Shown piece after piece: positions 30,055 to 53,786 of a DNA stretch of 64,000 bases (its first letter is position 1; every line of letters starts with the position of its first letter). Location: the NCBI GenBank assembly GCA_937900255.1, contig CALCDZ010000003.1, positions 63,149 through 127,148 on the forward strand, read 5' to 3'. The position numbers were made by a program, and so were the translations under genes. The notes beneath the pieces were generated by a model. It did no database searches. It worked only from the letters and a program-made list of their open reading frames with translations, and was not told where the DNA came from. This DNA is from an uncultured bacterium. GTDB lineage: Bacteria > Patescibacteriota > Patescibacteriia > SG8-24 > DYFX01.

Positions 30055-30690
30055 ATGATCATCTTCAAGATCGATCCCAAGAAGCCCGATGCCGCGTCCT
30101 TGAAGAAGGCCACGGATGTCTTGAGGTCCGGCGGCCTGGTCGTCTATCCGACCGAGACGGCCTATGCGCTCGGCTGCGACCCGAAAAACGCCAAGGCCGT
30201 GAAGCGGCTTTTTTCCGTGAAGAAGCGGGATGCGGCGAAGCCCTTGGCGATGATCGCGTCCGCGCCGGCCATGGCCAAGCGTTTCCTGAAGCTTGATCGT
30301 TATGCGCGCATCCTGGCCGACGCTTTCTGGCCGGGTCCGCTCACGCTCGTCGCCAAGCCGTTCGTCCGGCTCGCGCCGGGGATCGCTTCCAAGCGGGGAG
30401 AGATCGCCCTGCGCGTCAGTCCGCACCCGGTGGCCGTGGCGCTTTCGAAAGCGCTCGGGCGTCCGATCGTCTCGACCTCGGCCAACCTCTCCGGCAAAGC
30501 CGGTTCCTTCGACGCCGCTTCCGCCCTGCGGGATCTTGGGACCTCGCCGGATCTCTTGATCGATGCCGGACCGCTCCCGCCCGCGCCCGTCTCGACCCTC
30601 GCCCGTTTCGCGGGCGGCGTCTGCGAAGTCCTGCGCGAAGGCGCCGTCACCGAAGAGGACCTGCACCGCGAACTGATGCGCCGCCTATGA
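30055..30690 (+). CDS. tsaC: L-threonylcarbamoyladenylate synthase, Sua5/YrdC/YciO family
   Basis: YrdC-fold signature …GGLVVYPTETAYALGCD…PIVSTSANLSG…; TGATATG stop-start overlap. Confidence 0.75.
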   Translation: MIIFKIDPKKPDAASLKKATDVLRSGGLVVYPTETAYALGCDPKNAKAVKRLFSVKKRDAAKPLAMIASAPAMAKRFLKLDRYARILADAFWPGPLTLVAKPFVRLAPGIASKRGEIALRVSPHPVAVALSKALGRPIVSTSANLSGKAGSFDAASALRDLGTSPDLLIDAGPLPPAPVSTLARFAGGVCEVLREGAVTEEDLHRELMRRL

Positions 30691-31847: not shown

Positions 31848-31848
31848 T

Positions 31849-32628
31849 ATGCCGACGCGACGCTATGGACAGCATTTCCTGACCGACCGGTCGATCGTCG
31901 CCAAGATCGCCGCCGGCGCGGGCGTCTCCAAGGACGACGCCGTGCTTGAAATCGGCCCAGGGCGCGGCATCCTGACGCGGGCGCTCGCGGAGACCGCCCG
32001 CAGGGTCCTGACGGTGGAGATCGACCGGCGGCTGCACGCGCTGCTCGTGGAGGACGGGCTTCCGGGCAACGTCGAACTCTTGCGGAGCGACGCCCTGGCG
32101 CTCGAACCCGCCGACCTCGCCGCCAAGCTCGGCACGGATTGGAAACTGGTCGCCAACCTTCCCTACGAGATCACCTCGAAGACGCTCGAAAAGTTCCTGC
32201 CGATGCGCTCGCGCACCGGAACCGGCCCGACGTCCATCACGCTGATGCTTCAGAAGGAGGTAGGGGAGCGCATCCTGGCCAAGCCGGGCGCGATGAACCG
32301 CCTGGCGCTCTTCTGTGGATATTATTCCGTGCCGGCGCGGCTTTTCTCCGTCGCGCGCGGGGCGTTTTCGCCGCCTCCGAACGTCGATTCCTGCGTCATA
32401 CGTCTGGACGTCAGGGAGGACGTCGCTTTGGATGGGGATGAAGAAGCCTTGTTTTTCAGGCTGATTGAGGCGGCTTTCTCCGAAAAACGCAAGCAGATCA
32501 AGAATACGATCGGAGGACTGCTCGGTCCGGCCGCTTCCGACCGCCTCGCCGCCGCCGGGCTTTCCCTGTCCGTCCGACCGGAGGAAATCAGCTTGAATCA
32601 GTGGGTAACCTTGGCGCATCGGATGTGA
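31849..32628 (+). CDS. rsmA: 16S rRNA (adenine1518/1519-N6)-dimethyltransferase
   Basis: YGQHFL…VLEIGPGRGILT…NLPYEI motifs. Confidence 0.9.
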   Translation: MPTRRYGQHFLTDRSIVAKIAAGAGVSKDDAVLEIGPGRGILTRALAETARRVLTVEIDRRLHALLVEDGLPGNVELLRSDALALEPADLAAKLGTDWKLVANLPYEITSKTLEKFLPMRSRTGTGPTSITLMLQKEVGERILAKPGAMNRLALFCGYYSVPARLFSVARGAFSPPPNVDSCVIRLDVREDVALDGDEEALFFRLIEAAFSEKRKQIKNTIGGLLGPAASDRLAAAGLSLSVRPEEISLNQWVTLAHRM

Positions 32629-39200: not shown

Positions 39201-42200
39201 GATCGACGACGGCCTGAAGGTCACTGCCGAGAGCCAGCTGAAGCAGTCTCAGGCCGCAGCCGGCTACCCCGGTACGTCGTGCCGCGCGTACCCTTCAGAA
39301 AACGCCCCGTTCCCTTCGACGGTCGCCGACCCTTCCGGTTGGAATCTTCAGGCCGCGAGCATGAACAACGGCAATCCGGTGCTGATCGGCCCTTCTCCGG
39401 CCTTCGCCGCCGCCAACGTCTGCCAACGCCGCCTCGTGAACGGCGTCGAGGTCTCCAGTTGCGAATGCAACTACACGATCGCCAAGTACGGTTCCACCAC
39501 CAAGTATTTCCCGTCAGGCAGTTCCGACATCCCGACGGGCTACTGCGGCTCCGGCGCCTATGAAGGATACGAATGCGACCCGCTGGCCTCCGGTGTCCGC
39601 GCGCCGAGCAACCTGTCCTGCTGCAGCAAGAGCACGAACGGCAACGCGTTCGGCGGCCTCCTGAACGGCGGCACTGGCGGCTGTGACGACGGCGCGCAGT
39701 GCATCCGTCTCTCCAAGGTCGATCGCGTGGTCGGTTATGAAGGCCAGTGCCTCGAACGCGATTTCACGACCCCGGTGAACGGGCTCAACAACGAGTATGC
39801 CTGCTTGACCTGGCGCCCGGTCGGCCTGGTCGGCGGCTCGCGCGACATCTACAACCAGAACCAGACGGCCGGCTACTTCGCCGCGGCCGACCGCCGCTTC
39901 TATTGCGTAGGCAGCCAGCCGGCCTGGTCGCTGGACTTCCACATCAACACGAACGAGGACCGGGACCAGACCGACAATCATGACCTGTACTACCAGTACA
40001 AGGGCGTAGGCCCGTACGACCAGTACACCAACAGCTACTTCGGGCACGGTACCGTCACGAACATCGGGACCCACTCGGCTTCCCAACATCACGATTGCGG
40101 AGATGATACGCCGAACGGCGGTTGGTGCGTCTGGCCGACCGATTCCCGTCTCCAGCTGAAAGAGCAACGGGACGGGAATGGGAACGTGGTCACTTGCACC
40201 GGCAACTCGGATTGCGATACCGGCAACAAGTATTGGTGCAGTTCCCAAGACCCGTACAAGAACACCTGCGTGAAAGGGGACACGGGCAGCGCGTCGCAGG
40301 ATCAGTTCAAGGACTACACGTTCGACAACAATGCCGTGGGCGTCCTCGGCTGCTATGAGATCCGCGCGGGCGGTACGCCTGAGACGAACTACATCGATTA
40401 CCCGTATATCGGCCCCCCGCTCTACCGTCAGCAGCTCCAGAGCATCTACTTCCAGGTGAACCGGAGCATCTATCACAACTTTTCCGATACGGATCTGGCC
40501 GCGGCGACCAACCCGCACCAGCAGGTCAATCAGAACTGCAGCGATGCCGACGACCCGTCCATCGCCAGCAACGCCGACAACGATCATGCCGACCAGAACC
40601 CGACCACCAAGGACGTCACCCGCTTGAAGTTCAAGAACGGACAGCCTGAGCGCAAGGACGGCCTCCTGATCCCGGCGAACAATGCCGATCACGGGCTGAA
40701 CATCTACTACCTGGACGAGAGCAACGGCTTCAAGGTCGATGCCTCAAGCGGCAACGGCATCCTGCTGTTCACCGGCAACTTCGACTCGAACGGGAAGCTT
40801 TCCTCGATCCGCATCGGCGCGGCCAACCCCAACGGGCACGGCGGGTCCGACGACGACCGCCACGTCTCCTTCGGCATCCATGCCATGGGCTTCGTCTTCA
40901 AGCCCGGCTGTTCCGAGATCGCCCAGGTGGACCAGGACGGGGAGTTCGGCGCCACCCAGGCCTTCACGAACGCCATCAATCCGGCACGCAATTTCAATCC
41001 GTCCGCCGGAGGCGGGCTGCATGCCGACGTGCTCGTGAACGGGGACCCCAACCCGGCCGCCAACAGCATGCTGGCCGACTACACGAACGCCTGCACGCCC
41101 TTCGGCGCCATCGGGTCGATCTCCCAGCCGCCGCCGGCGACGCCATGGACCTACGTGACATCGCGCTTGTCCAACGACGTCAACCAGTGCACCGTCTCGG
41201 ATTTCACCAAGGGTAACACGTACGAACCTCAAGCGCCGGAAACGCTCGCCGCCAATCCGCCCGTGGACTCTTCCGGGGTGCAGCTGGTCCCGCCTTCTTC
41301 CTGGGCGTCGAGCAGCTTGCGCAACCTCTTCCGCAAGATCTACGACGTCTGGTCGTACCAGCCGCTCGACCTCGAAGCGCGCGGAGGCACGTATCAGCGC
41401 GTCGCGGCCAACAACCCGACCGGCGACCCGGCGGGGAAGGGGGCGTATGACGAGACCGGGCAAGTCGACCCGAACGGCCTGGCGTTCCGCACCGGACTCG
41501 GAAGCTACCTTTCCAACCTGGCTTGGAACGCGCCGAGGATCGCCGCCGTCGACGTCAACGCCTGCGACGGCAACGGCCGCTGCAAGGCCGGCAAGCTGGA
41601 CAGCCTGACCGTCAACGGGCGGGACAGGGGGGTCATCATCGGGGCGGATGGGGCGATGTCCGTGACGGCCAAGTTCTTCGCCTGGGCCTCGCATAACTCG
41701 ATGCCGATCGTGAAGCGCGCCGTGCTCTGGGGAGACTTGGCGTCGGCCGAACCGCCCGCCAAGGGCTGGTATAAGAACCAGAAGCCCGTCTGCTCACCGG
41801 ACGTCTCCGACGCGAACGCCGTCGGCGAATGCGCCAACACTCCGGGACTCACCTGCGGCGCGGATGGCGATTGCCCGAACGGGGATCGCTGCGTCAAGGG
41901 CGCCAACAACTTCGGGAATACGCCCGGCGCCTGCAATGCCGCCCCGTACCGGTTCGACCATGTCTACACCTGCTCCTTGGGCGACCTGCAGTCCATGCCG
42001 CTTTGCACGGGTTCGTCCGAGTCGGCGGATAACGCCCCTTGTTACCGGCTCGTCAATGCGGCACCGGTCTGCGTCTACCGTCCGAAGGTCCAGATCACGG
42101 ACAACTGGGGTTGGTGCAACTGCACCGGTTCCGGCTGCAAGGCCTCCGGCGGCGCGTATCAGGACGGATGCGGCGTGAGCGCCCCTCCCTCCGACGCGAA

Positions 42201-42273
42201 GCCGTGGAGCGAATACGCCGGAGAGATCCGCCTCAGCCCGTCCATCAAGGACGCCCAGGCCTTCCACCCATGA
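33274..42273 (+). CDS. giant (2999 aa) Cys-rich secreted surface protein with at least three CBM4/9-like modules
   Basis: Signal peptide; over 100 Cys with recurrent (A/V)GC motifs; three segments starting NGGFEDLLDG…W, RDPSFETPDSSGNPKYW and AADFESGTTGGW that resemble CBM_4_9 β-sandwich modules; antisense 1806-aa ORF judged spurious. Confidence 0.85.
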   Translation: MRERPSGRKTRSLAAPLLAILVATGVFGSGIVAPSPAQAQLIVSDPGATAAGTVSAAANTTTASAQVKQSAWDVLKIALTNTAELAILNGANYFAQKVAYDTANYVASGGNGQTPFFHTEGVLDYLGSTAKDAAADVLGTLSKDPNTFGKYGFNLCAPSDPHVSLIIKTGFLNGLPGLLGGSTGGPKPSCSWDTISRNWDQFSHLDSDTVLNNVGVMFTPGQSSLSAAIQVNNAALAEISKKQEAAVNDFVANNGFISKVSKIGGKVLTPADTIKTQLNLSLENGWKQGDQTVAISNGAFGNAAFGILPAALHTFTNTLAESMMKKVFDRGLITLNDILGNNKGDTALTFDGGSSPGGRASAELSNASLLTPKILSITNYNALTDFAACPAGSQRGPDNCVMDGQFFTAVNRASQGSPLTVRQAVAQGLLKANWPLLPLAHGKNHESTCYNEAFCYSNLVKLRKASVLPIGWELAANSPFNDVSRPITLAEAMNRFDDCPTKPDGSVDASKLPDPLHPWCHLIDPEWVLKYPVQICRQQAPGPTLVSSESPARALTCVDQATCIAQDAAGNCVGGYGYCVREKNVWNLDADACPAAYASCTTFRRADGASASYLSTTLDSGSCNGQNAGCRQYSQSQNAVPNGGFEDLLDGKARDWTLSPGARLSRSGLLAERGLDAVGLANGAVASVVIPSLQPSSPYVLSASVLQEFEASAPVGTVTLKLFRADGSPVSATDLKTTCTYRQGDPSVSLDISATHLGYLSGSCSITLPNDAASGKIELSSTTAQSGNRAWFDDVGLYGASFSASPYDSLLLNGKVQKCASDQAGCTDLVRMSTGTLNLVRDPSFETPDSSGNPKYWSVPTPGTYEKGTFKGFDGVSAMRLDANGVSQDVTGVLASASYVFSAYTKLGGAVSGNPRALVQLYDTSTPPAPVAPTSVTGCQVSGTGIRLDLAAGSDYRRAACAFTTPTDVGYARVTLIADNGSSALVDAVQLELSVEPTGYHEAYPSTAQHVYLKTMPEGLDCAGPDRAPECANYAPSCRREEVGCDSYKPDDGGIAIPAVTTAGDACPTECVGYDTFKEEPSNFNDPRFPLFLVPSTAQSCSAAEAGCSEFTNVQKLANGGESREDFSYLRLCAKPDQNAGTFYTWEGNDSKGYQLRTWTLLKSRIASSPVGGSDPTGGNAPCTKLAYDNAGRPACADDAASVAAASCLKSDLLANPDCREFYDAAGDIHYRLYSKTVVVSDACTEYRITKSTETECGAHGGSWRNQECHYFAYAPESQSCRAAAVGCRAYSGNASRNVRVALAADFESGTTGGWVSAPGGGATTDVANSNESVAAGGHSLKVSRATVTKDVSSIVKKGKSYLLTFWAKGTGDLTIAFSSAGDRAFTFNRVTGQPAPVALGTEWKPYQVGPVSAVNAAAFSAAGAAGNEQLTVSRSGSGSPLFYLDNIELREVTDDLYLIRDSWQTPASCDRTPSGDSSPQYMLGCRGYRDRSSRSVALKSFDRICRPEAVGCEAMYDTRHTASPFPQTFGAVCSLGAACAPSAGAVTCPCKIAGQTVCEAASGASTCRYDIDDSVPASRVSPSGDTVRIPADGVTYLVNDARYACTSDNVGCTMMGDKTLNRERTAVQGWKTVYFKNDPATYADTLCRKTEEYCQAYTRGADGSSAYFKDPELRTCEFKENVAGYSGWFKTGTSDPCYADYLQAGTQYGIWKNSDAPYAAWAGQCEPQYDQCKEFVDPQDTSTLHPNGQPYYAIKNARLDSSSCQNRASLTKSPSGADSASACVLFWQTDDLLKTFDAAATYQASDAQRGGLVSAVSSDRNDANVVLKVARDRQCGEWLDCRSSETVFNQTSGQYQNVCTSFGLCAQYERVGNTTRCVRYVDSAYTGQTLSTKIYQARDTGWKGLEYTSYAIPNQYPVNELVTMDVSSGTRSSKPDLRLVRVRGACAGAYGSACGPSDDPGTCLGPSNARKCVYPIDDGLKVTAESQLKQSQAAAGYPGTSCRAYPSENAPFPSTVADPSGWNLQAASMNNGNPVLIGPSPAFAAANVCQRRLVNGVEVSSCECNYTIAKYGSTTKYFPSGSSDIPTGYCGSGAYEGYECDPLASGVRAPSNLSCCSKSTNGNAFGGLLNGGTGGCDDGAQCIRLSKVDRVVGYEGQCLERDFTTPVNGLNNEYACLTWRPVGLVGGSRDIYNQNQTAGYFAAADRRFYCVGSQPAWSLDFHINTNEDRDQTDNHDLYYQYKGVGPYDQYTNSYFGHGTVTNIGTHSASQHHDCGDDTPNGGWCVWPTDSRLQLKEQRDGNGNVVTCTGNSDCDTGNKYWCSSQDPYKNTCVKGDTGSASQDQFKDYTFDNNAVGVLGCYEIRAGGTPETNYIDYPYIGPPLYRQQLQSIYFQVNRSIYHNFSDTDLAAATNPHQQVNQNCSDADDPSIASNADNDHADQNPTTKDVTRLKFKNGQPERKDGLLIPANNADHGLNIYYLDESNGFKVDASSGNGILLFTGNFDSNGKLSSIRIGAANPNGHGGSDDDRHVSFGIHAMGFVFKPGCSEIAQVDQDGEFGATQAFTNAINPARNFNPSAGGGLHADVLVNGDPNPAANSMLADYTNACTPFGAIGSISQPPPATPWTYVTSRLSNDVNQCTVSDFTKGNTYEPQAPETLAANPPVDSSGVQLVPPSSWASSSLRNLFRKIYDVWSYQPLDLEARGGTYQRVAANNPTGDPAGKGAYDETGQVDPNGLAFRTGLGSYLSNLAWNAPRIAAVDVNACDGNGRCKAGKLDSLTVNGRDRGVIIGADGAMSVTAKFFAWASHNSMPIVKRAVLWGDLASAEPPAKGWYKNQKPVCSPDVSDANAVGECANTPGLTCGADGDCPNGDRCVKGANNFGNTPGACNAAPYRFDHVYTCSLGDLQSMPLCTGSSESADNAPCYRLVNAAPVCVYRPKVQITDNWGWCNCTGSGCKASGGAYQDGCGVSAPPSDAKPWSEYAGEIRLSPSIKDAQAFHP

Positions 42274-42280
42274 CCCACCT

Positions 42281-44956
42281 ATGAAGACGCTCAGCCGCCT
42301 CATCGACACGATCAAGACGCGCTTGTCCGGGAAACATGCCCTTCCCCGCGTCTTGGGGCTGCTCGCGATCGGCCTGATCGTCTTCGTCCTGCCTGAAGCG
42401 GCGCATGCCTGCGGCACGTTCGACGTCGGATGCTACGTCGGACAGGCGATCATCAAGATCTTCGAGCTGTTGGCGGCGCTGATGGGGTACCTGCTGGTCC
42501 TCGAAGTCTCGGCCCTCATCAGCGTGGCGCAATACGCCAACTTCGTCTCTCCGGGCCCGACGGTGGTGCAGATCGGCTGGGTCGTCACCCGGGACCTGGC
42601 CAACATGTTCTTCATCGTCTTCATGCTCGTCATCGCCTTCTCGACCGTCATCGGCGGGCCGGCGGAGAAGTATTCCTACCGCAGCAACCTCCAGAAGCTC
42701 CTGGTCATGGCAGTCGTCATCAACTTCTCGAAGACGATCGTCGGGCTGCTCATCGACATGAGCCAGGTGCTGATGCTGACCTTCGTGAACGGCTTCAAGG
42801 ATGCGGCGGCCGGAAACTTCCTTTCGGCCTTCCAGATCCAGAAGCTGCTCGAGCTCTCGGACGGCACGAACGGCATCGACTTCGGACTGGTGCTGGCGAT
42901 GATGCTGGCGTTCATCCTGGCCGCCATCGCCGCCTGCGTCGTGCTCATCATGCTGGTCATGATGACGTTCCGTATCGTCATGCTCTGGATCCTGATCATC
43001 TTTTCTCCCATCGCGTTCCTCACGAGCGCTTTCCCGATGGGATCCGGGTTCACCGGGAGGTGGTGGGGGATGCTCAAGCAGTACCTGGTGAGCGGACCGA
43101 TCATCGCGTTCTTCCTGTGGCTGGCGCTCGCGAGCGCGCAGCGGAGTCCGGATGGCCTGGCCAACGAGAAGTACCAGAACGGGGGAGGATTCGCCCAGCC
43201 TTCATCCGCTGCCGGAGCCGAAGCGTCGGCGGCCGGGAACTTCCAGGGTTACGCCATCCCTTCGAGGGCCGGGCGTGCCGACACTATCCTGAGCCTCGTG
43301 ATCATGACCTGCATCATGTTCGCCGGGTTGAAGTTCGCGGCGGAAGACACGAAGGTCATCGGATCGGGCTTCGCGAAGCAGGTCAAGGGACGGGTCGAAG
43401 GCGCGTTGAACACGATCGCCCGCGCGCCTGATCGTTTCGCCAGGGATCAGGTCAGCGGCGCCTTCAGGAGCGTCGGCGGTTCGACCATGAAGGGTATCGG
43501 TACCGGTTTGGCACGCGTGCCGCTTCTCGGTGGGGTCGGTCGCCGCCTCGCCGCCAGGGGCGAGCAGCTCGCGGAAGGCCGCCGCGCGGAACTCGAAAAG
43601 CGTTGGGTCGGTTCCGCCAAGGACCTGGCGAAGTACAATCCTGGTGAATTCGGTTCCAAGATGCGCGTCGGTTTCGCCACCGCCGGACAGATCAAGGAAA
43701 CGGCCGAAGCCGCCCTTGCCAACCCGAAGGCCATGGAGGCGCTCAAGAAGTCGGGCGGCGCCGAAATCGTGCGCGATCGTCTCAAGGCAGCCTCTGAAAA
43801 GGATCCGGCCCAGAAGGGCGCGTACGACAATTTCATGAAGGCCAATTGGGATCTCGCGAAGGACGCCAAGGAGAAGAACGCGATCCTGGGGAAGTTCAGC
43901 GGGGAAGAGGCGCGGAAGTACATGAGCGCGCCCCAGATGACGGAAGAGCACGTCTCCCAGTTCGGCAAGAACACCTTGACCGACATCCTCGCGAACGGCA
44001 AGGGCGAACAGCAGGCTGCGGTCCTTGGGGCCTTCAGCGCCAAGAACGCCAGCGGCGAACTCGGCAAGTTCATGAAGGAGAGGCGCATGACCTATGCCGA
44101 CATCCCGGCCGAGGCATACGCGCAGGCCGGCGCGTCCGGCAAGTCCTTGAAGCTGAGCGCGCTGGAAGCGGCGGAAAAGGATCCCGCGCTGATGAGGAGA
44201 TTCACCGAGGACGCGAAAATGCGCGACCAGCTGGCGCCGGTGGCCAGGGACAATTTCGCGGCCGCCGTGACCGACATCGAGAAGGCGCAGAAGCTCGCCA
44301 TCCTCTCCCAACTGGGCGGCGCCACGGCTGCGGACTTCGGTTCGCCGCCGGCCGGCAGCCCGCCCGGGACCCCGAGCGACATCGAGGTCGGCATCGGCCA
44401 GCTGTCAGCCAAGGCGCTCAATGACTTGGAACGGAGCACGCCGACCGACAACCCTGCCGCGCAGGCCGGTCTCGCGAAGATCCTGGAGGCCGCCGTCAAG
44501 AACGGCAGCACCGACCTGGTGCAAGCCATCCAACGCAGCCCGAACCTGTCCACGTACGTGCCGCTCACCGTCGCCCGCGAGGCGGAGAAATCGACCGGCG
44601 GCTACAGCGCCAGCGTCAACAGCGCCGCGAACACGAAGCTCGCCGAACTTGATCGTCGCAGGAGGGATGCGGCCAGCAGTACGGATCCGGGCGTGAAGAG
44701 CGCGGCCTTGGGAATAGCCGATGACATCGAGCAGATCCGCGAAGCGATGGATGGGGCCAAGAAAGCGGCCAGGGAATTGGCGGCCGTCGAAAAGAACATC
44801 GCCACGCTCAGGGAAAACTTCGCGGACCATCAGAAGGGGGGCAGGGCGGATGACATGGCCAAGGTCGCCGCTGAGATCAAGACCGCGCTCAAGGAGGCTT
44901 TCGAGAAGAAAGAGAAGCTCGCGAAGGCCAACGATAGGCTCAAAGAGGTGAGTTAA
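42281..44956 (+). CDS. TrbL/VirB6-like polytopic membrane protein with about 590-aa coiled-coil-rich C-terminal extension
   Basis: N-terminal about 300 aa with 6-7 TM helices in VirB6/TrbL-like arrangement; long hydrophilic K/E/A-rich tail; start 8 nt after giant gene stop. Confidence 0.6.
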   Translation: MKTLSRLIDTIKTRLSGKHALPRVLGLLAIGLIVFVLPEAAHACGTFDVGCYVGQAIIKIFELLAALMGYLLVLEVSALISVAQYANFVSPGPTVVQIGWVVTRDLANMFFIVFMLVIAFSTVIGGPAEKYSYRSNLQKLLVMAVVINFSKTIVGLLIDMSQVLMLTFVNGFKDAAAGNFLSAFQIQKLLELSDGTNGIDFGLVLAMMLAFILAAIAACVVLIMLVMMTFRIVMLWILIIFSPIAFLTSAFPMGSGFTGRWWGMLKQYLVSGPIIAFFLWLALASAQRSPDGLANEKYQNGGGFAQPSSAAGAEASAAGNFQGYAIPSRAGRADTILSLVIMTCIMFAGLKFAAEDTKVIGSGFAKQVKGRVEGALNTIARAPDRFARDQVSGAFRSVGGSTMKGIGTGLARVPLLGGVGRRLAARGEQLAEGRRAELEKRWVGSAKDLAKYNPGEFGSKMRVGFATAGQIKETAEAALANPKAMEALKKSGGAEIVRDRLKAASEKDPAQKGAYDNFMKANWDLAKDAKEKNAILGKFSGEEARKYMSAPQMTEEHVSQFGKNTLTDILANGKGEQQAAVLGAFSAKNASGELGKFMKERRMTYADIPAEAYAQAGASGKSLKLSALEAAEKDPALMRRFTEDAKMRDQLAPVARDNFAAAVTDIEKAQKLAILSQLGGATAADFGSPPAGSPPGTPSDIEVGIGQLSAKALNDLERSTPTDNPAAQAGLAKILEAAVKNGSTDLVQAIQRSPNLSTYVPLTVAREAEKSTGGYSASVNSAANTKLAELDRRRRDAASSTDPGVKSAALGIADDIEQIREAMDGAKKAARELAAVEKNIATLRENFADHQKGGRADDMAKVAAEIKTALKEAFEKKEKLAKANDRLKEVS

Positions 44957-44974
44957 CGACTTCGGGACCGTCGT

Positions 44975-46783
44975 ATGGATCTCCTCCAGAAAATCCGAAA
45001 GCTTCCGGAGCCGGTCCAGGACTATCTGTATTCCGAGTCCTTGCTGCACGGGAATGGGCAGGTCATCGAACGGAACGCCCTCGATTTTGAGGGCCAAAAA
45101 ACCTTCCTCCGCCTCCTCCAGCGTGTCTTCGCCCGCGAGGTGCCGATGTCGGATCTTGAAAAAGAAGCATCCGCGCTCGTCGGAGGAGACGAAGGTAAAA
45201 GCAAGGCGTTGGCGCGCGATATCGCGGGCTACTGCCTCCTGCCGCTCGACCGCTGGCTCGGCGATGTTTCAGGTTATGTCCGTCGTCTCGGCGGGGACGT
45301 CTCGAGCTATCCGGCCGAGCGCATCCAGATGGTCGAGCGCACGCGCGACGAGGCGGCGTCCGAGGTCGTCAGTTCTTCCGACGGCGCGGCCGAAGCGACG
45401 GCGCGCGCCCGCGAGAGGATGCGGGACGTGGTCACGTCCTTCTTGGCAGGCATCCGCACGGAAGAGCAGGCGCTCGAGGTCCTGACGCGGTCCGACAAGA
45501 TCGGCGGCGTCGGGCTCGACCCGTCCGCCGCCCGGTCAGTGATCGATCATGCCAAGGAGGAACAGCGCACGGTCGTCATCAAGGAAGCGCCGGCCGTCGG
45601 CGCCCCGCCTGCGGCCGCTCCGCAAGCGCCATCCGCCCCCGCGCCGAAGCCGAAGGAGGACTTCGTCATGATCGCGCCGGAAGACGAGGAGGAGATCGCT
45701 CTGTTGAAGGAAAAGGCATCGTCGGCCAAAGGTACGCAGCAGGCAGACGAGACTGCGCGGCGCATTCAAGCCTCGATCGATCGCATCTACCTCGATTCCG
45801 GCCTCGCGACCGACGACGAGGATTTCTCGAAGCGCGTCAAGACGGTCATCGGCAACCGCCTCCGCGACGTGCGCGATCAGATGGAGACGCTTGAGACGAT
45901 GGTGCAGCCGAAGGAACTCGGCGGGCTCGGTCTCGGCCAGGAATCGGCGCGGCGCCTCCTTGGCATCATCCAGGGCAGCCTTCAGGAGGTCCATGAAGCG
46001 CATGCCGAGCGGATCGAAGGGGAAAAAGCCGCTTGGGTGGAGAAGGAACGCCGCAAGGCGGCCGAGGCACCCGCCCAGGAAGCGGCCGCTCAGGAATCGG
46101 ACCTGGAGCGCCTGTATCGCAGCATCGTCGCGAAATCGAAAAAAGCCACCAAAATGGCCGCCGTTGCCGCGCCCGTCGCAGCGCCGACCCCGGCGATGGC
46201 TGCGGCGCCCGCTTCGAAATTCCCGAGTCCTCCGTCGAACCTGCCGGTTTCCGACGTCCATATCATTCCACCGCACTTGCGCGCGCCCGTGACCATCCCG
46301 CTCCCGGAGGTCGAGATCGCCCCCGTTCGGACGTTCATGCCGCAGCCGCCGCTGACCCTCGTCAAGCCCGTGCCCGGCGCTCCCGCCCCCATGCCGGCCT
46401 TTTCGGTCGTGCCTGGGCAGCCGAACCGCCCCCGCATGGAAGACGTCAAGGCCGCTCCGAAGCTGACCGGACCGGTCGAGGAGCTTCGGGCCATCACCGT
46501 CGTCGATTTCCGCCGGCTCTCCAAGGACCCGAAGGAGGCCTGCATGAAAGTGAAGGACAAGATCGATCTTTTGGCCGAGCAGTCCTATACCCGAAGGACC
46601 GAAGGTCTCAAGGCCTGGTCGGCTTCCGAGGTCGTCCGTACCTATCTGGAACTCATGCGCGAGGGCCTGAACGGAATGCCGTTCAAGGAGGCGGTCGCGG
46701 CCCGCGAGGCGGCCAAGAGGCCGTTCCTGACCGCGGAGGAGTTCCAGGCGATCGGGGAGCTGAGCAGACAACTGCGATATTAA
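44975..46783 (+). CDS. hypothetical 602-aa protein of the T4SS-like cluster (no TM, Pro/Ala-rich linkers)
   Basis: Long GC3-biased ORF, no recognised motifs, no Walker box. Confidence 0.55.
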   Translation: MDLLQKIRKLPEPVQDYLYSESLLHGNGQVIERNALDFEGQKTFLRLLQRVFAREVPMSDLEKEASALVGGDEGKSKALARDIAGYCLLPLDRWLGDVSGYVRRLGGDVSSYPAERIQMVERTRDEAASEVVSSSDGAAEATARARERMRDVVTSFLAGIRTEEQALEVLTRSDKIGGVGLDPSAARSVIDHAKEEQRTVVIKEAPAVGAPPAAAPQAPSAPAPKPKEDFVMIAPEDEEEIALLKEKASSAKGTQQADETARRIQASIDRIYLDSGLATDDEDFSKRVKTVIGNRLRDVRDQMETLETMVQPKELGGLGLGQESARRLLGIIQGSLQEVHEAHAERIEGEKAAWVEKERRKAAEAPAQEAAAQESDLERLYRSIVAKSKKATKMAAVAAPVAAPTPAMAAAPASKFPSPPSNLPVSDVHIIPPHLRAPVTIPLPEVEIAPVRTFMPQPPLTLVKPVPGAPAPMPAFSVVPGQPNRPRMEDVKAAPKLTGPVEELRAITVVDFRRLSKDPKEACMKVKDKIDLLAEQSYTRRTEGLKAWSASEVVRTYLELMREGLNGMPFKEAVAAREAAKRPFLTAEEFQAIGELSRQLRY

Positions 46784-46799
46784 ATGGTAGGATGAGGCC

Positions 46800-47228
46800 A
46801 TGGCCCAGTTCGTCGTCCCGCAATTCATCGACGTTGAAGACAAGATCATCGGACAGGTGACGGTCCGCCAGTTCGGCATCATGATGGTCGATGCGCTCGT
46901 CTGCGTCATCGTCTACAAGCTCCTGAGCCTGGCCGTCGCGATCGCCATCGACGTGGCGCTGCTCGCGGCCGGGCTGACGCTCGCCTTCGCGCGCGTCAAC
47001 GGGCAGCCGTTCCACTTTTTCCTCCTGAACGTGCTTCAGACCTGGCGTCGGCCGATGATCCGCGTCTGGAACAAGGAACTTTCCGACGCGGAGATCATCG
47101 CCCTTTCGAAGGTCGAACCCCCGCCCCCGGCCCCGCGCCGCGTCTATAAGGAAGCGCCGACCACCTCTCGGCTCTCCGAGCTGGCGCTCATGGTCAATAC
47201 CGGCGGCGTCTACAATCCCGAGGAATAG
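46800..47228 (+). CDS. PrgI/VirB3-like small membrane protein
   Basis: N-terminus FVVPQFIDVEDKIIGQVTVRQFGIMMV matches the PrgI-family pattern (E-x-K-I-x-G-x-T-x-RQ) followed by two TM helices. Confidence 0.55.
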   Translation: MAQFVVPQFIDVEDKIIGQVTVRQFGIMMVDALVCVIVYKLLSLAVAIAIDVALLAAGLTLAFARVNGQPFHFFLLNVLQTWRRPMIRVWNKELSDAEIIALSKVEPPPPAPRRVYKEAPTTSRLSELALMVNTGGVYNPEE

Positions 47229-47247
47229 GGAATTCCAGGAGGAAGCT

Positions 47248-47946
47248 ATGGCGAATGAGCAGCTGATGCAAAGCAAGAAGCTCGCCGGGTCGAAACCCCA
47301 GGTCTCGACCCAGCAGTTCTTGGATATCGCCGAAATCCGGGAGGACGTGGTCGTCATGAAGGACGGCACGATGCGGGCGGTGCTGCTGGTCTCGAGCATC
47401 AACTTCTCGCTGAAGTCCGAGGACGAGCAGGAAGCGATCATCCAGGGCTACATCTCCTTCCTGAACTCGCTCGATTCCCCGGTGCAGATCCTCATCCAGT
47501 CGCGCAAGCTCGACATCGACGACTACCTGAACCGCCTCAAGGAGCACGAAAAGACCCAGTCCAACGACCTCCTGCGGAACCAGATCGTCGATTACCGGCA
47601 GTTCGTGAAGGAGCTGGTCGAGCTCGGGGAGATCATGCAGAAGAAGTTCTTCGTGATCGTGCCCTACAACCCGGCCTCGTCCAAGCGCAAGGGCTTCTTC
47701 GCCCGGATGGGAGAGGTGCTCTCGCCGCTCGTCTCGGCCCGCCTCCGGGAAGAGCAGTTCCGCCAGCGCAAGAAGGACCTCATGGTCAAGGTGGATTCCG
47801 TCAGGGCCGGATTGAACTCGATGAGCCTGATGAGCGCGACGCTCGACACCCAAAGCCTGATCGAGCTTTACTACACGGCCTATAACCCCCAGTCGATGCA
47901 GTCGCAGAAACTGGAGAAGGTCGACAACGTGCGACTTGAACCGTAG
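47248..47946 (+). CDS. virB4: VirB4/TraC-family ATPase, N-terminal fragment (CagE_TrbE_VirB region)
   Basis: DVVVMKDGTMRAVLLVSSINFSLKSEDE and FFVIVPYNP align with the VirB4 N-terminal domain; ends with TAG, 2 nt before the next ORF in a different frame. Confidence 0.65.
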   Translation: MANEQLMQSKKLAGSKPQVSTQQFLDIAEIREDVVVMKDGTMRAVLLVSSINFSLKSEDEQEAIIQGYISFLNSLDSPVQILIQSRKLDIDDYLNRLKEHEKTQSNDLLRNQIVDYRQFVKELVELGEIMQKKFFVIVPYNPASSKRKGFFARMGEVLSPLVSARLREEQFRQRKKDLMVKVDSVRAGLNSMSLMSATLDTQSLIELYYTAYNPQSMQSQKLEKVDNVRLEP

Positions 47947-47948
47947 AC

Positions 47949-49844
47949 ATGGCGTTCAACCCCGCTGACGCAAAACAGGAACGGCCCGCCGGGAGCGCGG
48001 CCAAGCCCAAGCTGACCGCCGCCGAGCGGCAGCGTTTGGCGCAGGAAGAGCGCATCAAGCTCGAGGAGGAACGCACGTACCGCAAGGGCGTCGTCACCAT
48101 CCGCGACCTGATCGCACCGGCCGCCATGGAGGTCAAGCCGAACCACATCCGGCTCGGCGATCTTCACGTACGCACGCTTTTCGTCGTGACGTATCCGCGC
48201 TACCTGACGCTCGGCTGGTTCACGCCGATCATCAACTTCTCGGCGACGATGGACGTCGGCATGTTCTTCTATCCGGTCCAGCCGGAGATCATCCTCAAGC
48301 AGCTCAAGAACAAGGTCGGCGTGCTCGAGGCCCAGATCATGTCCGACGCCGAGAAGGGCGCGGCGCGCGACCCGCTGCGCGAGACCGCCTTGCGCGACAT
48401 CGAGAAGCTGCGGGACGACCTGACGCAAGGCGTCGAGCATTTCTTCCAGTTCGCCTTGTACGTCACGATGTACGCCCGGTCAGAGAAGGAACTCGACGAC
48501 CTCTCCAACCAGGTCGAGGGCATGTTCGGTTCCAAGCTGATCTACACCAAGCGGGTGCTCTATCAGGCCGAGCAGGGCTTCAACTCGACCCTGCCGATCG
48601 GCAATGACGAGCTGATGATCACCTTCAACATGAACACGAGCCCGATCGCTTCGGGCTTCCCGTTCGTCTCGGCCGACCTCACCTCCGACAACGGCATCCT
48701 CTACGGCATCAACCGCCACAACAACAGCCTGATCCTGTTCGACCGCTTCTCGCTCCAGAACGCGAACGCGATCGTCTTCGCCACTTCCGGCGCGGGCAAG
48801 AGCTACGCCGTGAAGCTTGAGGTGCTCCGCTCCCTCATGGTCGGCACCGAGGTCATCATCATCGACCCGGAGATGGAGTATAAGCACCTCTCCGACGCCG
48901 TCGGGGGCACCTACATCAACATCTCGCTGGCGTCCGATTCCAAGCTCAACGTCTTCGACTTGCCGCGCCCCGTGGGGGAGGACGTCCGTTCCGAGGACAT
49001 CATCCGCTCGGCCGTCATCGCCGTGAAAGGCCTGATGCGCATCGTGTTCGGCGAGGTCACCACCGCCGAGGATTCGATCATCGACCGGGCGCTTCTCGAG
49101 ACCTATGCCAAGAAGGACATCGTGCCGGGCGTCGACCTGGCGACCGTCGAGCCGCCCGTGATGTCCGATTTCCAGCAGGTGCTCGAAGGCATCACCGGCA
49201 CGGAAAACCTCCAGATCAAGCTCCGCAAATATACCGAGGGCACGTTCGCCGGGCTGCTCAACTCGCCGACGACCGTCGAGATGGATAACCCGCTCGTGAC
49301 CTTCAGCGTCCGGGACCTGGAGGACGAGCTGCGTCCGCTCGCCGTCTATACCATCGTCAATTACATCTGGAACGTCGTGCGTTCCGAGCGCAAGAAGCGC
49401 GTCCTGGTGATCGACGAGGCCTGGTGGCTCATGCAGCACGACGACTCCGCCAAGTTCATCTTCGCCCTGGTCAAGCGCTGCCGCAAGTATTTCCTGGGCG
49501 TCACGACCATCACGCAGGACGTCAACGATTTCCTGCGCTCGCCGTACGGCCAGGCGATCGTCACCAACTCGGCGATGCAGTTCCTCCTGAAGCAGTCGCC
49601 CGCGGCCATCGATCTCATCCAGAAGACCTTCCTGCTGACGGAAGGGGAGAAGTACCTGCTGCTCGAGGCGGGCGTCGGCGAAGGCATCTTCTTCGCCGGC
49701 CCGAGGCACGCCGCCATCAAGGTGGTCGCCTCGTACGCCGAAGACCAGCTGATCACCTCCGACCCCCGGCAGCTGCTCGAAATCGAGAACGCCAAGCGGG
49801 AGCTGGAGAAGCAGCTCTTGTCCGGTGCTGAAACCCAAGCCTGA
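47949..49844 (+). CDS. virB4: VirB4/TraC-family ATPase, middle plus C-terminal ATPase portion
   Basis: VTYPRYLTLGWFTPIINF region, Walker A FATSGAGKSY, Walker B-like VLVIDEAWWL. Confidence 0.85.
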   Translation: MAFNPADAKQERPAGSAAKPKLTAAERQRLAQEERIKLEEERTYRKGVVTIRDLIAPAAMEVKPNHIRLGDLHVRTLFVVTYPRYLTLGWFTPIINFSATMDVGMFFYPVQPEIILKQLKNKVGVLEAQIMSDAEKGAARDPLRETALRDIEKLRDDLTQGVEHFFQFALYVTMYARSEKELDDLSNQVEGMFGSKLIYTKRVLYQAEQGFNSTLPIGNDELMITFNMNTSPIASGFPFVSADLTSDNGILYGINRHNNSLILFDRFSLQNANAIVFATSGAGKSYAVKLEVLRSLMVGTEVIIIDPEMEYKHLSDAVGGTYINISLASDSKLNVFDLPRPVGEDVRSEDIIRSAVIAVKGLMRIVFGEVTTAEDSIIDRALLETYAKKDIVPGVDLATVEPPVMSDFQQVLEGITGTENLQIKLRKYTEGTFAGLLNSPTTVEMDNPLVTFSVRDLEDELRPLAVYTIVNYIWNVVRSERKKRVLVIDEAWWLMQHDDSAKFIFALVKRCRKYFLGVTTITQDVNDFLRSPYGQAIVTNSAMQFLLKQSPAAIDLIQKTFLLTEGEKYLLLEAGVGEGIFFAGPRHAAIKVVASYAEDQLITSDPRQLLEIENAKRELEKQLLSGAETQA

Positions 49845-49849
49845 AACCT

Positions 49850-50431
49850 ATGACTGCCCGAAGACGCGCCATCCTGATCGTCATCCTGGCCCTGCTGCTC
49901 GTCGCGATCCTGGCGACGGCGATCTGGCTCCTTTTCCGGAAGGCGAAGCCGACTTCCATCTACGTCCCGCAGCGCGTGGATTCCGCGACCTCCCAGCCGG
50001 CGGCCGTGCCCGCTATGCCCAACCCGCTCGCTCCGGCTGTCCAGGTTTCGGCCGGAAGCACGGCCGCCGCCCAAATGGCCGAGCTGTTCGCCGAGCGTTA
50101 CGGGAGCTACTCCAATCAAGGGAACTTCGGGAACCTCAAGGATCTCCTGCCCGTCATGACCGCCACGTATCGCGCGGCGACGGAAGCCTACCTCGCCGCC
50201 GCCAAGCCGTCCGACGCGGCCGATTACCAAGGAGTGACCAGCGTGAAGATTTCCACCAAAGTCCGGTCGTATGACGCTTCGGCCGGCACGGCCACGGTCG
50301 CCGTCATGCTGCAGCAGCAGAAGAGCGCCGGCGCTTCCGTCACGCCGTCCATCAGTTACCGCTCCCTCAAGATGACCCTCAAGAAGTCCGGTTCCGATTG
50401 GAGGGTCGATTCCGCCGCTTGGGAGAATTGA
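49850..50431 (+). CDS. bitopic membrane protein, possibly an NTF2-like (VirB8/TcpC-like) fold
   Basis: Single N-terminal TM (ILIVILALLLVAILATAIWLL) plus about 150-aa extracytoplasmic domain; fold assignment is inference. Confidence 0.45.
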   Translation: MTARRRAILIVILALLLVAILATAIWLLFRKAKPTSIYVPQRVDSATSQPAAVPAMPNPLAPAVQVSAGSTAAAQMAELFAERYGSYSNQGNFGNLKDLLPVMTATYRAATEAYLAAAKPSDAADYQGVTSVKISTKVRSYDASAGTATVAVMLQQQKSAGASVTPSISYRSLKMTLKKSGSDWRVDSAAWEN

Positions 50432-50465
50432 CAGCCGCTCCCCGGAAACGCTAGGACGCGCCCGT

Positions 50466-51113
50466 ATGGGGCGCGTTTTGGATTTCCTGTTTCCGCTCGA
50501 ATGTCTGGCCTGCGGTGCGGCCGGGTCGCATTGCTGTCCAAGCTGCGTCGCCGAAGTCGATCTGTCGCCCAAGACGTTCCAGGCCGGGACCTTGCGCGCG
50601 GCAGCGGCGTATCCGTACGCCATCCCGCTCGTCCGCAGGCTGATCCATGACCTCAAATATGAGCGCTGGACCTGCGCGGCCGAGCCGATCGGAGCCTTGG
50701 CCCGCCGCTGGGCGTCCAAGGACGGGACGTCGTTCTGCGGGGAAGAGGCCATCCTGGTGCCCGTGCCGCTCTCCATCAGGAAGTCCGGCGAGCGCGGCTT
50801 CAATCAGGCGGCGATGATCGCCGATGCCTTGGCCTGGGAGTTGGGGTTGCGTCGCAGCGACAAGCTGCTGGCCCGGCGCCGCGAGACCGCGCCGCAAGTC
50901 TCGGTCGAGGACCGCGCCAAGAACCTCGCGGGCGCGTTCGAAGCGCGCGTGCCGGAACGGTGGCGCGACCGTCCGCTTGTCCTGGTCGACGACATCTGGA
51001 CGACCGGATCGACCATGCAGGAATGCGCCGCGGCGCTCCGAACCGCCGGCGCGTCGGACATCAGGGGATTCGCCCTGGCCTGGGGGAGTCCCAAGCCGGA
51101 TACGGACCGCTGA
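50466..51113 (+). CDS. comF: ComF-family competence protein (phosphoribosyltransferase domain)
   Basis: N-terminal Cys4 zinc-finger (CLACG…CPSC) and PRTase motif LVLVDDIWTTGST. Confidence 0.8.
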   Translation: MGRVLDFLFPLECLACGAAGSHCCPSCVAEVDLSPKTFQAGTLRAAAAYPYAIPLVRRLIHDLKYERWTCAAEPIGALARRWASKDGTSFCGEEAILVPVPLSIRKSGERGFNQAAMIADALAWELGLRRSDKLLARRRETAPQVSVEDRAKNLAGAFEARVPERWRDRPLVLVDDIWTTGSTMQECAAALRTAGASDIRGFALAWGSPKPDTDR

Positions 51114-51148: not shown

Positions 51149-51236
51149 GGAGGGGTGGCCGAGCGGTTTAAGGCAACGGTCTTGAAAACCGTCATCCCGC
51201 AAGGGATCGTGAGTTCGAATCTCACCCCCTCCGCCA
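51149..51236 (+). tRNA. tRNA-Ser (anticodon TGA), long variable arm
   Basis: Acceptor GGAGGGG/CCCCTCC, anticodon loop CTTGAAA, T-loop TTCGAAT, CCA encoded. Confidence 0.85.
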
Positions 51237-51370
51237 CGACAATTTCTTATCGGACGACCCGCTTGGCCCAAATAGCCCCCGGAGCCCGGTAGGGGTTGTG
51301 GAATCGGATGCTGCTTTTTCATGCGTGATGTGTGGGCGACCCCTGGATTACTACTGGATTTTTTGAATAT

Positions 51371-51781
51371 ATGTCCAAAAATGATCATGAAAACGCGAGC
51401 AACGCTACGGAAAAGCTGCTCGACGCCCTCTTCTCTAACGGGGAGAAGGAAAAAACACTGGTATGGCCCATCGCGACCGGTCGGCATGTCAAGATAGCGA
51501 AGTACAAGCAGAAGAAGCGCTGGTACTTGGACACCGACCTCCATACCGATTTTTCATGTGTGAATTATTCAGATAAGGGGAAGGACATCCTACGAGAGAT
51601 CGCAACTACAGGGCAGTTGTCGGATGAGGTACGCATCGAAAATGGACCGGGCCCGTGCGTTTTTACTATTTCCTTTTCCAACGACACCGAGAATGGTGCA
51701 CGCTGGACGTATGGTGTCTGGCTGGAAACGCTCAAGACAATTATTCAGGACGACACTGCAGTGCAGACGATAAAACTTTAG
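51371..51781 (+). CDS. hypothetical protein (AT-rich)
   Basis: ORF in low-GC island; ATG 51371 (MSKNDHE…). Confidence 0.4.
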   Translation: MSKNDHENASNATEKLLDALFSNGEKEKTLVWPIATGRHVKIAKYKQKKRWYLDTDLHTDFSCVNYSDKGKDILREIATTGQLSDEVRIENGPGPCVFTISFSNDTENGARWTYGVWLETLKTIIQDDTAVQTIKL

Positions 51782-51964
51782 ATTCAGTGGTGGGTAATGT
51801 AAGGCGGTGCGACATTTTCTGGTGTACACATATGTCTCAAACCGAGTCGCTAACCTGACCCCCGAAAAAGCCCTAACATATCCAGAGGTTTGGGGGTACT
51901 GAACTCCAAGACACCGCCAAAAGAAGGCGATGCTCGAAAACGGCATAGGTCAAAACCATCTTCA

Positions 51965-52390
51965 ATGACATACTCATCATCGGCTTCGATCGTCATCAAC
52001 GCGCCATTGGAAAAGGTCTGGGAGGCGCTCATCACTCCTGAACAGGTGGAACGGTATTTTTTCGGCACGAAACTGGTCACGGACTGGAACGTCGGTTCGC
52101 CCATATTTTTCCGTGGAGAGTACGGCGGTAAGGCTTATGAGGACAAGGGACGCGTCCTCGCGTTCACGCCGATGGAAAGCCTGTCCTTCAGCTACTGGAG
52201 CGGCTTCAGCGGGCTTGAAGACAAGCCGGAGTCCTACCAAGTGATCCGCTACGGGCTGGAACGATCGCCGGACGGCATCAAGGTGACCATCGACCAATCG
52301 AACGTCGATACGCAGGAACGGGCAGACCACTCCGCCAAAAACTGGGAGACCGTCCTCGCCGGATTGAAGAGATTCGTCGAAGGGGAATGA
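51965..52390 (+). CDS. SRPBCC-superfamily protein (AHSA1/Aha1-like)
   Basis: ASIVINAPLEKVWEALITPEQVERYFFG… typical of the Activator-of-Hsp90-ATPase-homologue (START/Bet v1-like) fold. Confidence 0.65.
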   Translation: MTYSSSASIVINAPLEKVWEALITPEQVERYFFGTKLVTDWNVGSPIFFRGEYGGKAYEDKGRVLAFTPMESLSFSYWSGFSGLEDKPESYQVIRYGLERSPDGIKVTIDQSNVDTQERADHSAKNWETVLAGLKRFVEGE

Positions 52391-52394
52391 TGCC

Positions 52395-52946
52395 ATGGGC
52401 AGCAAAGCCGTGACGGAAAAATACGTGGCGTTCCTGCGCGGCATCAACGTCGGCGGGAACAAGAAGGTCGAGATGGCGAGGCTCAGGAAGGTGTTCACGT
52501 CCATGGGTTTCTCAGGCGTCTCCACCTACATCAATTCAGGGAACGTCATCTTCCGCGCGGGAAAAAAAGATTTTTCCCGCATAGAGGCGGCGCTGGAAAA
52601 GGCTTTCGGCTTCAAGATCGACGTCATCATCCGCGATGAGGAAAATATCCGGAAGCTCTGCGGAAAAATACCGGCCGGATTCCAAAATGACACGATACAG
52701 AAGACGGACGTCCTTTTCCTGAAGAGCGAATTCGACAAGAAGGGCACCATCGATTTGTTGCGCACGAACCCCGAAGTCGATACGCTCCTGTATGCGCCCG
52801 GGGCGATCGTTTGGAGCGTCAAAAGAAGCTCGTATGCCAAGAGCGGGATGAAGAACTTCATCGGCTCTGTGGTCTATAAGAACATGACGGCGCGGAACGT
52901 GAATACGGTGAGGAAAATTTCCGACCTGCTCCTGGAGGGTGAATGA
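52395..52946 (+). CDS. DUF1697-domain protein
   Basis: Signature KYVAFLRGINVGGNKKVEM near N-terminus. Confidence 0.7.
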   Translation: MGSKAVTEKYVAFLRGINVGGNKKVEMARLRKVFTSMGFSGVSTYINSGNVIFRAGKKDFSRIEAALEKAFGFKIDVIIRDEENIRKLCGKIPAGFQNDTIQKTDVLFLKSEFDKKGTIDLLRTNPEVDTLLYAPGAIVWSVKRSSYAKSGMKNFIGSVVYKNMTARNVNTVRKISDLLLEGE

Positions 52947-52958
52947 TCCAAGAAACAT

Positions 52959-53786
52959 ATGCATACACGCATCGACAAATATCTCTTCGCCGCGGCGCTC
53001 CTGGTCCTGATGGGCGCGGGTTGCCGTGTCCGCCCTTCGGTCAAGCCACAACCCTACTTTCCTACGCCTACCCCAGGTCCGCAGGTCGTCGGTACTGCGC
53101 TCATCGATCTGAACGGCGACGGCAAAAAGGAACAGATCGCGCTGTCGCTCTCGTATGCTGCCGGCATCCCGTATCCTCACCATTCGCTTCGCATCGACGA
53201 TCAGACGATCGACATCCCCGAACAAAGCAACCCGACCGGCCATTTCGGCATCGTCAAGATCGGCGGTTCCGATCCAAAAACCGGATACCCATTGCGACAG
53301 ATCGCCTTGGGCGACGAAGGGCCCAGCAGCGACCCGACGACGCGCTTCTATGGATATGACGGAAGCAAGATCCTCTTTTTGGGCCAGACGCAAGATTTCT
53401 ACGAGAACATGCGCTTTGCCGGCGATGGCACCTTCACCACCATGAGTCGCGGGCGTATCCTTGACACTTGGTTCCACCAGGATGATTTCAAGCTGGAGAA
53501 TGGCCATATCATTCACGTGCCGCGTGCACTCTACGAAAGATCGACGCCCGTCACCCTGCTCGTGCCGATGACGTTCCAGAGGTCGCCTAAGGACGCCTCG
53601 CCGGCGTTCCGACTCGAGCAGGGGAGCAAGGCCGTCATCACGGCCTGCGACGACATCGCTTGGTGCCGCATCACGGCGGATGGGCGAACGGGCTGGTTCA
53701 AGATCCAAGATTACGGCGACATCGTGGTGAAAGGAAAGCCTCTACATGGAGGCGAGGTCTTCGATGGGCTTTCTTTCGCGGACTGA
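52959..53786 (+). CDS. lipoprotein with C-terminal SH3b-like domain
   Basis: Lipobox LMGAGC; C-terminal AWCRITADGRTGWFKIQDYGDIVVKGKPL. Confidence 0.5.
   Translation: MHTRIDKYLFAAALLVLMGAGCRVRPSVKPQPYFPTPTPGPQVVGTALIDLNGDGKKEQIALSLSYAAGIPYPHHSLRIDDQTIDIPEQSNPTGHFGIVKIGGSDPKTGYPLRQIALGDEGPSSDPTTRFYGYDGSKILFLGQTQDFYENMRFAGDGTFTTMSRGRILDTWFHQDDFKLENGHIIHVPRALYERSTPVTLLVPMTFQRSPKDASPAFRLEQGSKAVITACDDIAWCRITADGRTGWFKIQDYGDIVVKGKPLHGGEVFDGLSFAD

Follow-up and report, generated by a model that had tools for sequence, protein, structure and literature searches.

Is a virB4 gene of a type IV secretion system (T4SS) that is interrupted by a stop codon and a change of reading frame a broken gene, or are its two parts two genes in their own right? 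This question is raised by a stretch of 64,000 nucleotides from an uncultured bacterium of the Patescibacteriota (GenBank assembly GCA_937900255.1, contig CALCDZ010000003.1, positions 63,149 to 127,148 of the forward strand), called here the window, in which two adjacent open reading frames, ORF1 and ORF2, together resemble one VirB4 ATPase. We conclude that the pair is very probably the normal two-gene form of the T4SS VirB4 motor of Patescibacteria (candidate phyla radiation, CPR), derived from an ancient gene fission. The elements of the gene pair are the following.

47248-47946, plus strand: ORF1, 232 aa, with an ATG start and a TAG stop at 47944-47946; a TrsD-like or 'TraC-like' standalone VirB4 N-terminal module.
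47949-49844, plus strand: ORF2, 631 aa, with an ATG start; a short-form VirB4 ATPase with the rest of the N-terminal domain and the C-terminal ATPase domain.
47944-47951, plus strand: the junction, consisting of the TAG stop, a 2-nt spacer (AC) and the ATG start.
48780-48803, plus strand: Walker A motif ATSGAGKS, residues 278-285 of ORF2, in columns invariant in the multiple alignment.
49401-49418, plus strand: Walker B motif VLVIDE, residues 485-490 of ORF2, with D489 and E490 invariant in the multiple alignment.

The preliminary description of this DNA had reported these coordinates with the TAG at 47944-47946, the 2-nt offset and the -1 frame, all of which are borne out by the sequence, the frame of ORF2 relative to ORF1 being +2 (that is, -1). 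The motifs that it quoted were also found: the IVPYNP block in FFVIVPYNP at residues 134-142 of ORF1, the YPRYLTLGW block as VVTYPRYLTLGW at residues 79-90 of ORF2, and the Walker A and Walker B motifs. A strong Shine-Dalgarno motif, AGGAGG, precedes ORF1, and no transmembrane segment was predicted in ORF1 or ORF2. A TGA at 47937-47939, four codons before the ORF2 ATG, closes the ORF2 frame to any upstream extension, so that a -1 shift would be confined to positions 47940-47946, within which no slippery sequence or heptamer is present.

Two readings of the split had been offered in the preliminary description: disruption by a frameshift or nonsense mutation, as a pseudogene or through a sequencing error, and a genuine two-subunit VirB4. 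The first would mean that a recent mutation, or an indel of sequencing or assembly, broke a single virB4, and the two ORFs are indeed 2 nt apart in different frames, as a 1-nt indel would leave them. We surveyed the junction at 80 loci from species-representative genomes, all of them Patescibacteria with 53-88% identity and with the most distant classes outside the sample. The survey showed at 77 of the 80 loci an ORF1-like gene ending at its stop and then an adjacent ORF2-like gene, the contigs of the other three ending too soon. Spacers in the relatives range from -26 to +352 nt and are most often 1-6 nt, with a single case of 352 nt and the others up to +182 nt. The downstream gene is in relative frame 0, 1 or 2 in 23, 30 and 27 cases, respectively, the window and two Firmicutes plasmids being counted in. 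Because both spacers and frames vary, no single indel accounts for the split and no conserved recoding signal is possible. When ORF1 and ORF2 are compared with the genes of the two closest relatives, their ratios of nonsynonymous to synonymous substitution rates (dN/dS) come to 0.11-0.18 and 0.13-0.15, respectively, at an unsaturated dS of 0.5-0.8, and both genes are under purifying selection. The GC content at third codon positions (GC3) of ORF1 and ORF2, 0.91 and 0.92, is like that of other genes of the genome. A separate assembly, the one in Logan for run SRR6231188, matches the window with 100% identity along 5628 bp that take in the junction. The conservation of the split in all three frames, the purifying selection and this identical independent assembly refute the disruption, against which also stand the TGA upstream of ORF2, the proper stop and own Shine-Dalgarno motif of ORF1, and the alignment of the ORF2 ATG with the starts of the orthologues; we give a broken virB4 practically no chance. 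The same split in the orthologues supports the two-subunit VirB4.

A fused VirB4 could in principle still be made from this locus, alongside the two products or replacing them, by programmed -1 frameshifting or by bypass of the stop codon. The -1 frame of ORF2 and the lack of an obvious Shine-Dalgarno motif before it in this genome would fit with such recoding, which has, however, only positions 47940-47946 as room for the shift and no slippery heptamer there. In relatives, moreover, frames 0, +1 and +2 of the downstream gene are about equally common, some of these genes start 100-350 nt further on with stops in between, and a recoding signal could not have been kept through differences of this kind. 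We regard recoding as very improbable. A partial Shine-Dalgarno-like AAGGA lies inside the last ORF1 codons of many close-spaced relatives, though not in the window, and no such motif was seen in relatives with long spacers; the Shine-Dalgarno analysis of the junction was uninformative.

The ORF1 protein matches the beginning of two full-length VirB4 profiles of NCBIfam, at positions 2-120 of 752 in NF045971 and at positions 93-233 of 894 in NF045975, the mycoplasma-type VirB4 profile. Its assignment in the preliminary description to the CagE/TrbE/VirB region did not hold, since neither ORF1 nor ORF2 matched PF03135 (CagE_TrbE_VirB) in Pfam at E<=0.01; the Pfam family of ORF1 is instead PF26593, 'TraC-like' or TrsD-like, with a precomputed match for the identical protein and for all of its 120 best homologues. 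For TrsD itself, a remote homology to the N-terminus of VirB4 has been described (Quinonero-Coronel et al. 2025, Microb Genom, PMC12102498). We found 6280 homologues of ORF1 at E<=1e-3, and the best 120 of them, from 100% down to 61% identity, are all 224-237 aa long. Among 1.84 billion cluster representatives (50% clustering) there were 2688 matches; the best 150 of these, down to about 33% identity, measure 116-443 aa, and none has the length of a full VirB4. The family of ORF1 is thus very large, and its members are standalone proteins of about 230 aa. In some TrsD-like representatives of 320-443 aa, the TrsD-like region is N-terminal and is followed by an extra C-terminal extension of 100-200 aa, which is not the ATPase. 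The source names of the homologues, where given, are Patescibacteria, Uhrbacteria or Magasanikbacteria. Many records of metagenome-assembled genomes with this TrsD/VirB4 locus are titled 'uncultured Gammaproteobacteria bacterium', which looks like a submitter placeholder or a mislabel.

The ORF2 protein scored 343.6 bits (E 2.3e-102) against NF045971, the VirB4-like profile of the CD1110 family, above the cutoff of 325. It covers positions 166-728 of 752 in this profile, and for this reason it is an N-terminally short member of the family; in NF045975 it covers positions 292-892. No single polypeptide of the window runs across the whole NF045971 profile, as positions 2-120 are on the separate ORF1 with a stop and a frame change between. 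ORF2 also matches P-loop_TraG, AAA_10 and DUF87 in Pfam, and its residues 244-603 match PDB 4AG5, the VirB4 C-terminal domain, with E 7e-45. It has in this way what is generally expected of a VirB4 ATPase, namely Walker A, Walker B and homology to the solved VirB4 C-terminal domain. The score with TIGR00929 (VirB4_CagE) is 89.7 bits against a cutoff of 643, which leaves ORF2 outside that family. The locus is of the monoderm-type branch and not of the proteobacterial VirB4/CagE branch. The best 120 homologues of ORF2 have 531-676 aa. The collinear matches of ORF1 and ORF2 to NF045971 and NF045975 show that the homology on which the preliminary description had taken them as parts of one canonical VirB4 is real.

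Both split and fused forms were found when plasmids were searched with ORF1 by tblastn. The split forms are as follows.

Pontibacillus megaplasmid: upstream protein of 274 aa, 11-nt overlap, downstream CD1110-family VirB4 of 621 aa.
Clostridium perfringens megaplasmid pJFP838A: PrgI, then a protein of 312 aa, 130-nt gap, downstream DUF87 protein of 641 aa.
Sulfobacillus pL15: upstream protein of 194 aa, 1-nt overlap, downstream TraC of 607 aa.
pSK41: trsC, then trsD (227 aa), 14-nt gap, downstream TrsE (DUF87/VirB4 ATPase) of 672 aa.

The fused form is encoded by Carboxydocella pCCELLA01 as a single VirB4 of 754 aa. Its residues 11-129 correspond to residues 21-140 of ORF1 (34% identity, E 8e-20) and its residues 159-750 to residues 25-612 of ORF2 (E 3e-66). 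The ORF1-family profile spans fused residues 6-158, with the C-terminal helix and the 'LIELFY' motif mapping weakly to 133-175. From these alignments and the profile mapping, the break therefore falls at about residue 177-180 of the fused protein. The new termini are the last ~18 residues of ORF1, of low model confidence and poorly conserved, and the first ~45 residues of ORF2, which are charged and variable. ORF1 and ORF2 are thus collinear and complementary, and together they cover the full VirB4.

It might be argued that ORF1 is an independent accessory paralogue, a duplicated N-terminal lobe, and that the 631-aa VirB4 is self-sufficient. TrsD homologues of Gracilibacteria are mostly not adjacent to virB4 (PMC12102498), and the predicted order of secondary structures in ORF1 is loosely like that of ORF2 residues 60-196 in a low-confidence model; both points would agree with a paralogue. 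Yet ORF1 and ORF2 map without overlap, and in order, onto the single-chain VirB4 profiles and onto the fused protein, and the short VirB4 has no counterpart of fused residues 1 to ~158. The profile-profile comparison of the ORF1 and ORF2 families, in addition, gave no similarity (E 0.76), which argues against ORF1 duplicating something still present on ORF2; a paralogue of the ORF2 N-terminus was rejected on this result. We consider an accessory paralogue quite improbable, if less so than recoding. The split is real, conserved and under selection, and the two ORFs are collinear with and complementary to the fused VirB4.

We also compared the fold of ORF1 with known structures. A 62-sequence alignment served to build the AlphaFold2 (AF2) model of ORF1, whose mean predicted local distance difference test (pLDDT) score is 74 and whose confident core comprises residues 25-140 and 165-212. 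In a Foldseek search of the PDB with this model, the top 14 matches were all chains of TrwK/VirB4 from plasmid R388; the ORF1 sequence and its family profile gave no meaningful match to the PDB. For ORF2, residues 144-578 align to TrwK residues 299-741. In R388, the N-terminal domain of VirB4 comprises residues 15-400 and is wrapped by VirB3, the interface of the central and outer VirB4 dimer is built entirely by N-terminal domains, and the outer VirB4 subunit is bound by VirB8 tails (PMC9259494).

From these elements we propose that a single-chain monoderm VirB4 underwent an ancient fission near residue 177-180, by which the first lobe of the N-terminal domain was detached. This lobe would be ORF1, a soluble TrsD-like protein, while ORF2 would have kept the remaining N-terminal domain together with the RecA-like ATPase domain. 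The two genes would be held in one operon in the order PrgI/VirB3-like, TrsD-like, VirB4 and VirB8-like. Most probably the two products come together again, by non-covalent contacts, as a complete VirB4, in which ORF1, by analogy with R388, might supply the membrane-proximal lobe facing VirB3 and take part in the contacts between VirB4 subunits and with the membrane complex. The gene directly upstream of ORF1 codes for PrgI, which has two transmembrane segments, and through ORF1 the ATPase hexamer would be held to PrgI/VirB3 at the membrane.

Several points weigh against this proposal. The best fold match of ORF1 is modest (8rtb_A, E 4e-4, probability 1.00, 212 columns, template modelling score 0.41), and its sequence similarity to TrwK is negligible, the link being one of fold only, with a short stretch around the IVPYNP block that aligns to TrwK 113-140. 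The AF2 model of ORF2 was too poor (pLDDT 52) and was not used for mapping the short VirB4 N-terminus. Against NF041427 (TrsD/TraD), ORF1 scored 34.7 bits (E 1.6e-8) with a curated cutoff of 200, over positions 14-142 of 201, and it is therefore a homologue that stands outside that narrow curated subfamily. The match of ORF1 to TrsD of pSK41 is moderate, with a hhalign probability of 72% and E 3e-5, as is the hmmsearch value of 5e-11 for the ORF1 family, obtained in a one-sequence search space. No Shine-Dalgarno motif can be recognised before ORF2 in this genome, and spacers are longer than 50 nt in about a third of the relatives. The association of ORF1 with ORF2, the docking on VirB3 and the translational coupling are what we infer from the data above. 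For the coupling, the 2-nt spacing together with the missing Shine-Dalgarno motif makes it likely in this genome, and the long spacers in about a third of the relatives indicate that it is not a general requirement.

The fission might also have been non-neutral, if it set the stoichiometry or the timing of the lobe apart from those of the ATPase, which we hold to be unlikely. For example, the VirB3-binding lobe may be present on some VirB4 positions only (central versus outer, as in R388), or TrsD may be a regulated assembly switch of the essential, non-conjugative T4SS of Patescibacteria. A defined role for TrsD as a separable VirB4 subunit would be new biochemistry, while the gene arrangement itself is known.

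The gene pair lies in a string of genes from 33274 to 51113 that are all on the plus strand with spacers of 2-34 nt. The genes of this string and those next to it are listed below.

30055-32628, plus strand: Sua5/YrdC, a major facilitator superfamily (MFS) transporter and KsgA (RrnaAD), just upstream of the cluster, with KsgA at 31849-32628.
33274-42273, plus strand: giant secreted protein of 2999 aa with an N-terminal signal or transmembrane segment and a single CBM_4_9 match at residues 1304-1408.
42281-44956, plus strand: polytopic membrane protein of 891 aa with ~8 hydrophobic segments within residues 1-360, followed by a long hydrophilic tail.
44975-46783, plus strand: Pro/Ala-rich protein of 602 aa, inside the T4SS cluster.
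46800-47228, plus strand: PrgI/VirB3-like small membrane protein of 142 aa with two hydrophobic segments (PF12666, 33.7 bits against a cutoff of 27).
49850-50431, plus strand: bitopic, weakly VirB8-like protein of 193 aa with one predicted N-terminal transmembrane segment and a weak PF04335 match (E 2.5e-4, 21.4 bits, below the cutoff of 23.2).
50466-51113, plus strand: ComF-like phosphoribosyltransferase with a weak double zinc ribbon match below the Pfam cutoff.
51149-51236: tRNA-Ser(tga), after the ComF-like gene.

The 891-aa and 602-aa proteins have no match in Pfam or NCBIfam. The 891-aa protein is a candidate divergent VirB6-like component because of its position in the cluster and because VirB6 homologues have been reported in T4SS loci of Patescibacteria (PMC12102498). 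The giant 2999-aa ORF stops 7 nt before this membrane protein, which heads the T4SS string, and its product may be co-expressed with the T4SS as a component of the cell surface or an adhesin. At the other end, a competence-type gene, the ComF-like one, is directly appended to the string. Right after tRNA-Ser, the region 51300-53000 contains AHSA1-like (51890-52390) and DUF1697 (52395-52946) genes. Greedy ORF picking took low-GC3 ORFs of the opposite strand there, a sign that the composition may change here, perhaps through an insertion beside tRNA-Ser. The remaining window is of housekeeping type, with valyl-tRNA synthetase, NusA, RecG, Sua5, a histidine kinase and tRNAs. Neither a relaxase nor a VirD4 coupling protein was found among the window ORFs that were scanned, a part of all its ORFs.

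The split architecture is already known: it is in the literature, NCBIfam and Pfam models exist for proteins of this type, and the locus is an ordinary example. No T4SS component is more abundant in Patescibacteria than TrsD, of which 2221 assemblies have 2272 homologues, 1664 of them beside or otherwise associated with VirB4; of the model systems, the pGO1 subclass of MPF_FATA (mating-pair formation class FATA) is the only one to have it, and the function of TrsD was left unassigned (PMC12102498). In Ca. Southlakia epibionticum, the TrsD homologue is among the genes listed as essential (Wang et al. 2023, as cited in PMC12102498), and at least one cultivated Patescibacterium cannot live as an epibiont without its T4SS (PMC12102498). 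The homology of TrsD and VirB4 has been credited to Guglielmini et al. 2014, whose main text does not mention TrsD. TraD of the pELF plasmid was rejected as a relevant comparison, TraD there being a VirD4 homologue. What is added here is small: the partner VirB4 is shown to be missing precisely the part that TrsD provides, and the break has been mapped onto a fused relative. This complementarity gives a testable hypothesis for TrsD, that of a VirB3-binding VirB4 lobe supplied in trans. For annotation, a virB4 split in this way should not be taken for a pseudogene or an assembly error in Patescibacteria and in some Firmicutes elements, and a 'hypothetical' or 'TraC family' protein of ~230 aa upstream of a DUF87/VirB4 protein of ~630 aa should be taken for the detached N-terminal module of the motor.

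Among the known systems compared is TrwK/VirB4 of R388 (PDB 7O3J-7O43, 8RTB and 8RTD), whose N-terminal domain fold is matched by the ORF1 model; unlike the split ORF1 and ORF2, it is a single chain of 823 aa, belonging to a diderm MPF_T system. The single-chain VirB4 of Carboxydocella, of the NF045971 type, is collinear with ORF1 and then ORF2 but is one polypeptide; in its first lobe, the loop that joins the last strand to the C-terminal helix is shorter than in ORF1, and it has no counterpart of the ~18-aa tail of ORF1 or of the ~45-aa charged head of ORF2. The trsC-trsD-trsE genes of the staphylococcal plasmids pSK41/pGO1 have the same layout as the window, with a small VirB3-like gene before TrsD, and the PrgI gene of the window occupies the position of trsC on pSK41 and of PrgI on C. 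perfringens pJFP838A. TrsE of pSK41 shares 24% identity with ORF2 over ~600 aa (E 1e-44), and its TrsD was aligned with the ORF1-family profile over 179 columns. A relaxase and a VirD4-type coupling protein are encoded on pSK41, a conjugative plasmid; neither was detected among the scanned ORFs of the window, whose locus appears from its housekeeping flanks to be chromosomal. The closest system is the TrsD and VirB4 pair of Patescibacteria, to which all the nearest relatives of the ORF1/ORF2 pair belong. In the T4SS loci described for these bacteria (PMC12102498), virB4 is accompanied by a trsD homologue next to it and by a homologue of PrgI/VirB3, and all three are present in the window. KsgA is often a neighbour of virB4 in Patescibacteria (PMC12102498), and the pair has there the same order of PrgI/VirB3-like, TrsD-like and VirB4 genes as in the window, where KsgA is likewise nearby; the window locus is probably chromosomal too, with no relaxase seen among the scanned ORFs. 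Nothing substantive differs between this system and the window locus, which is one more example of it.

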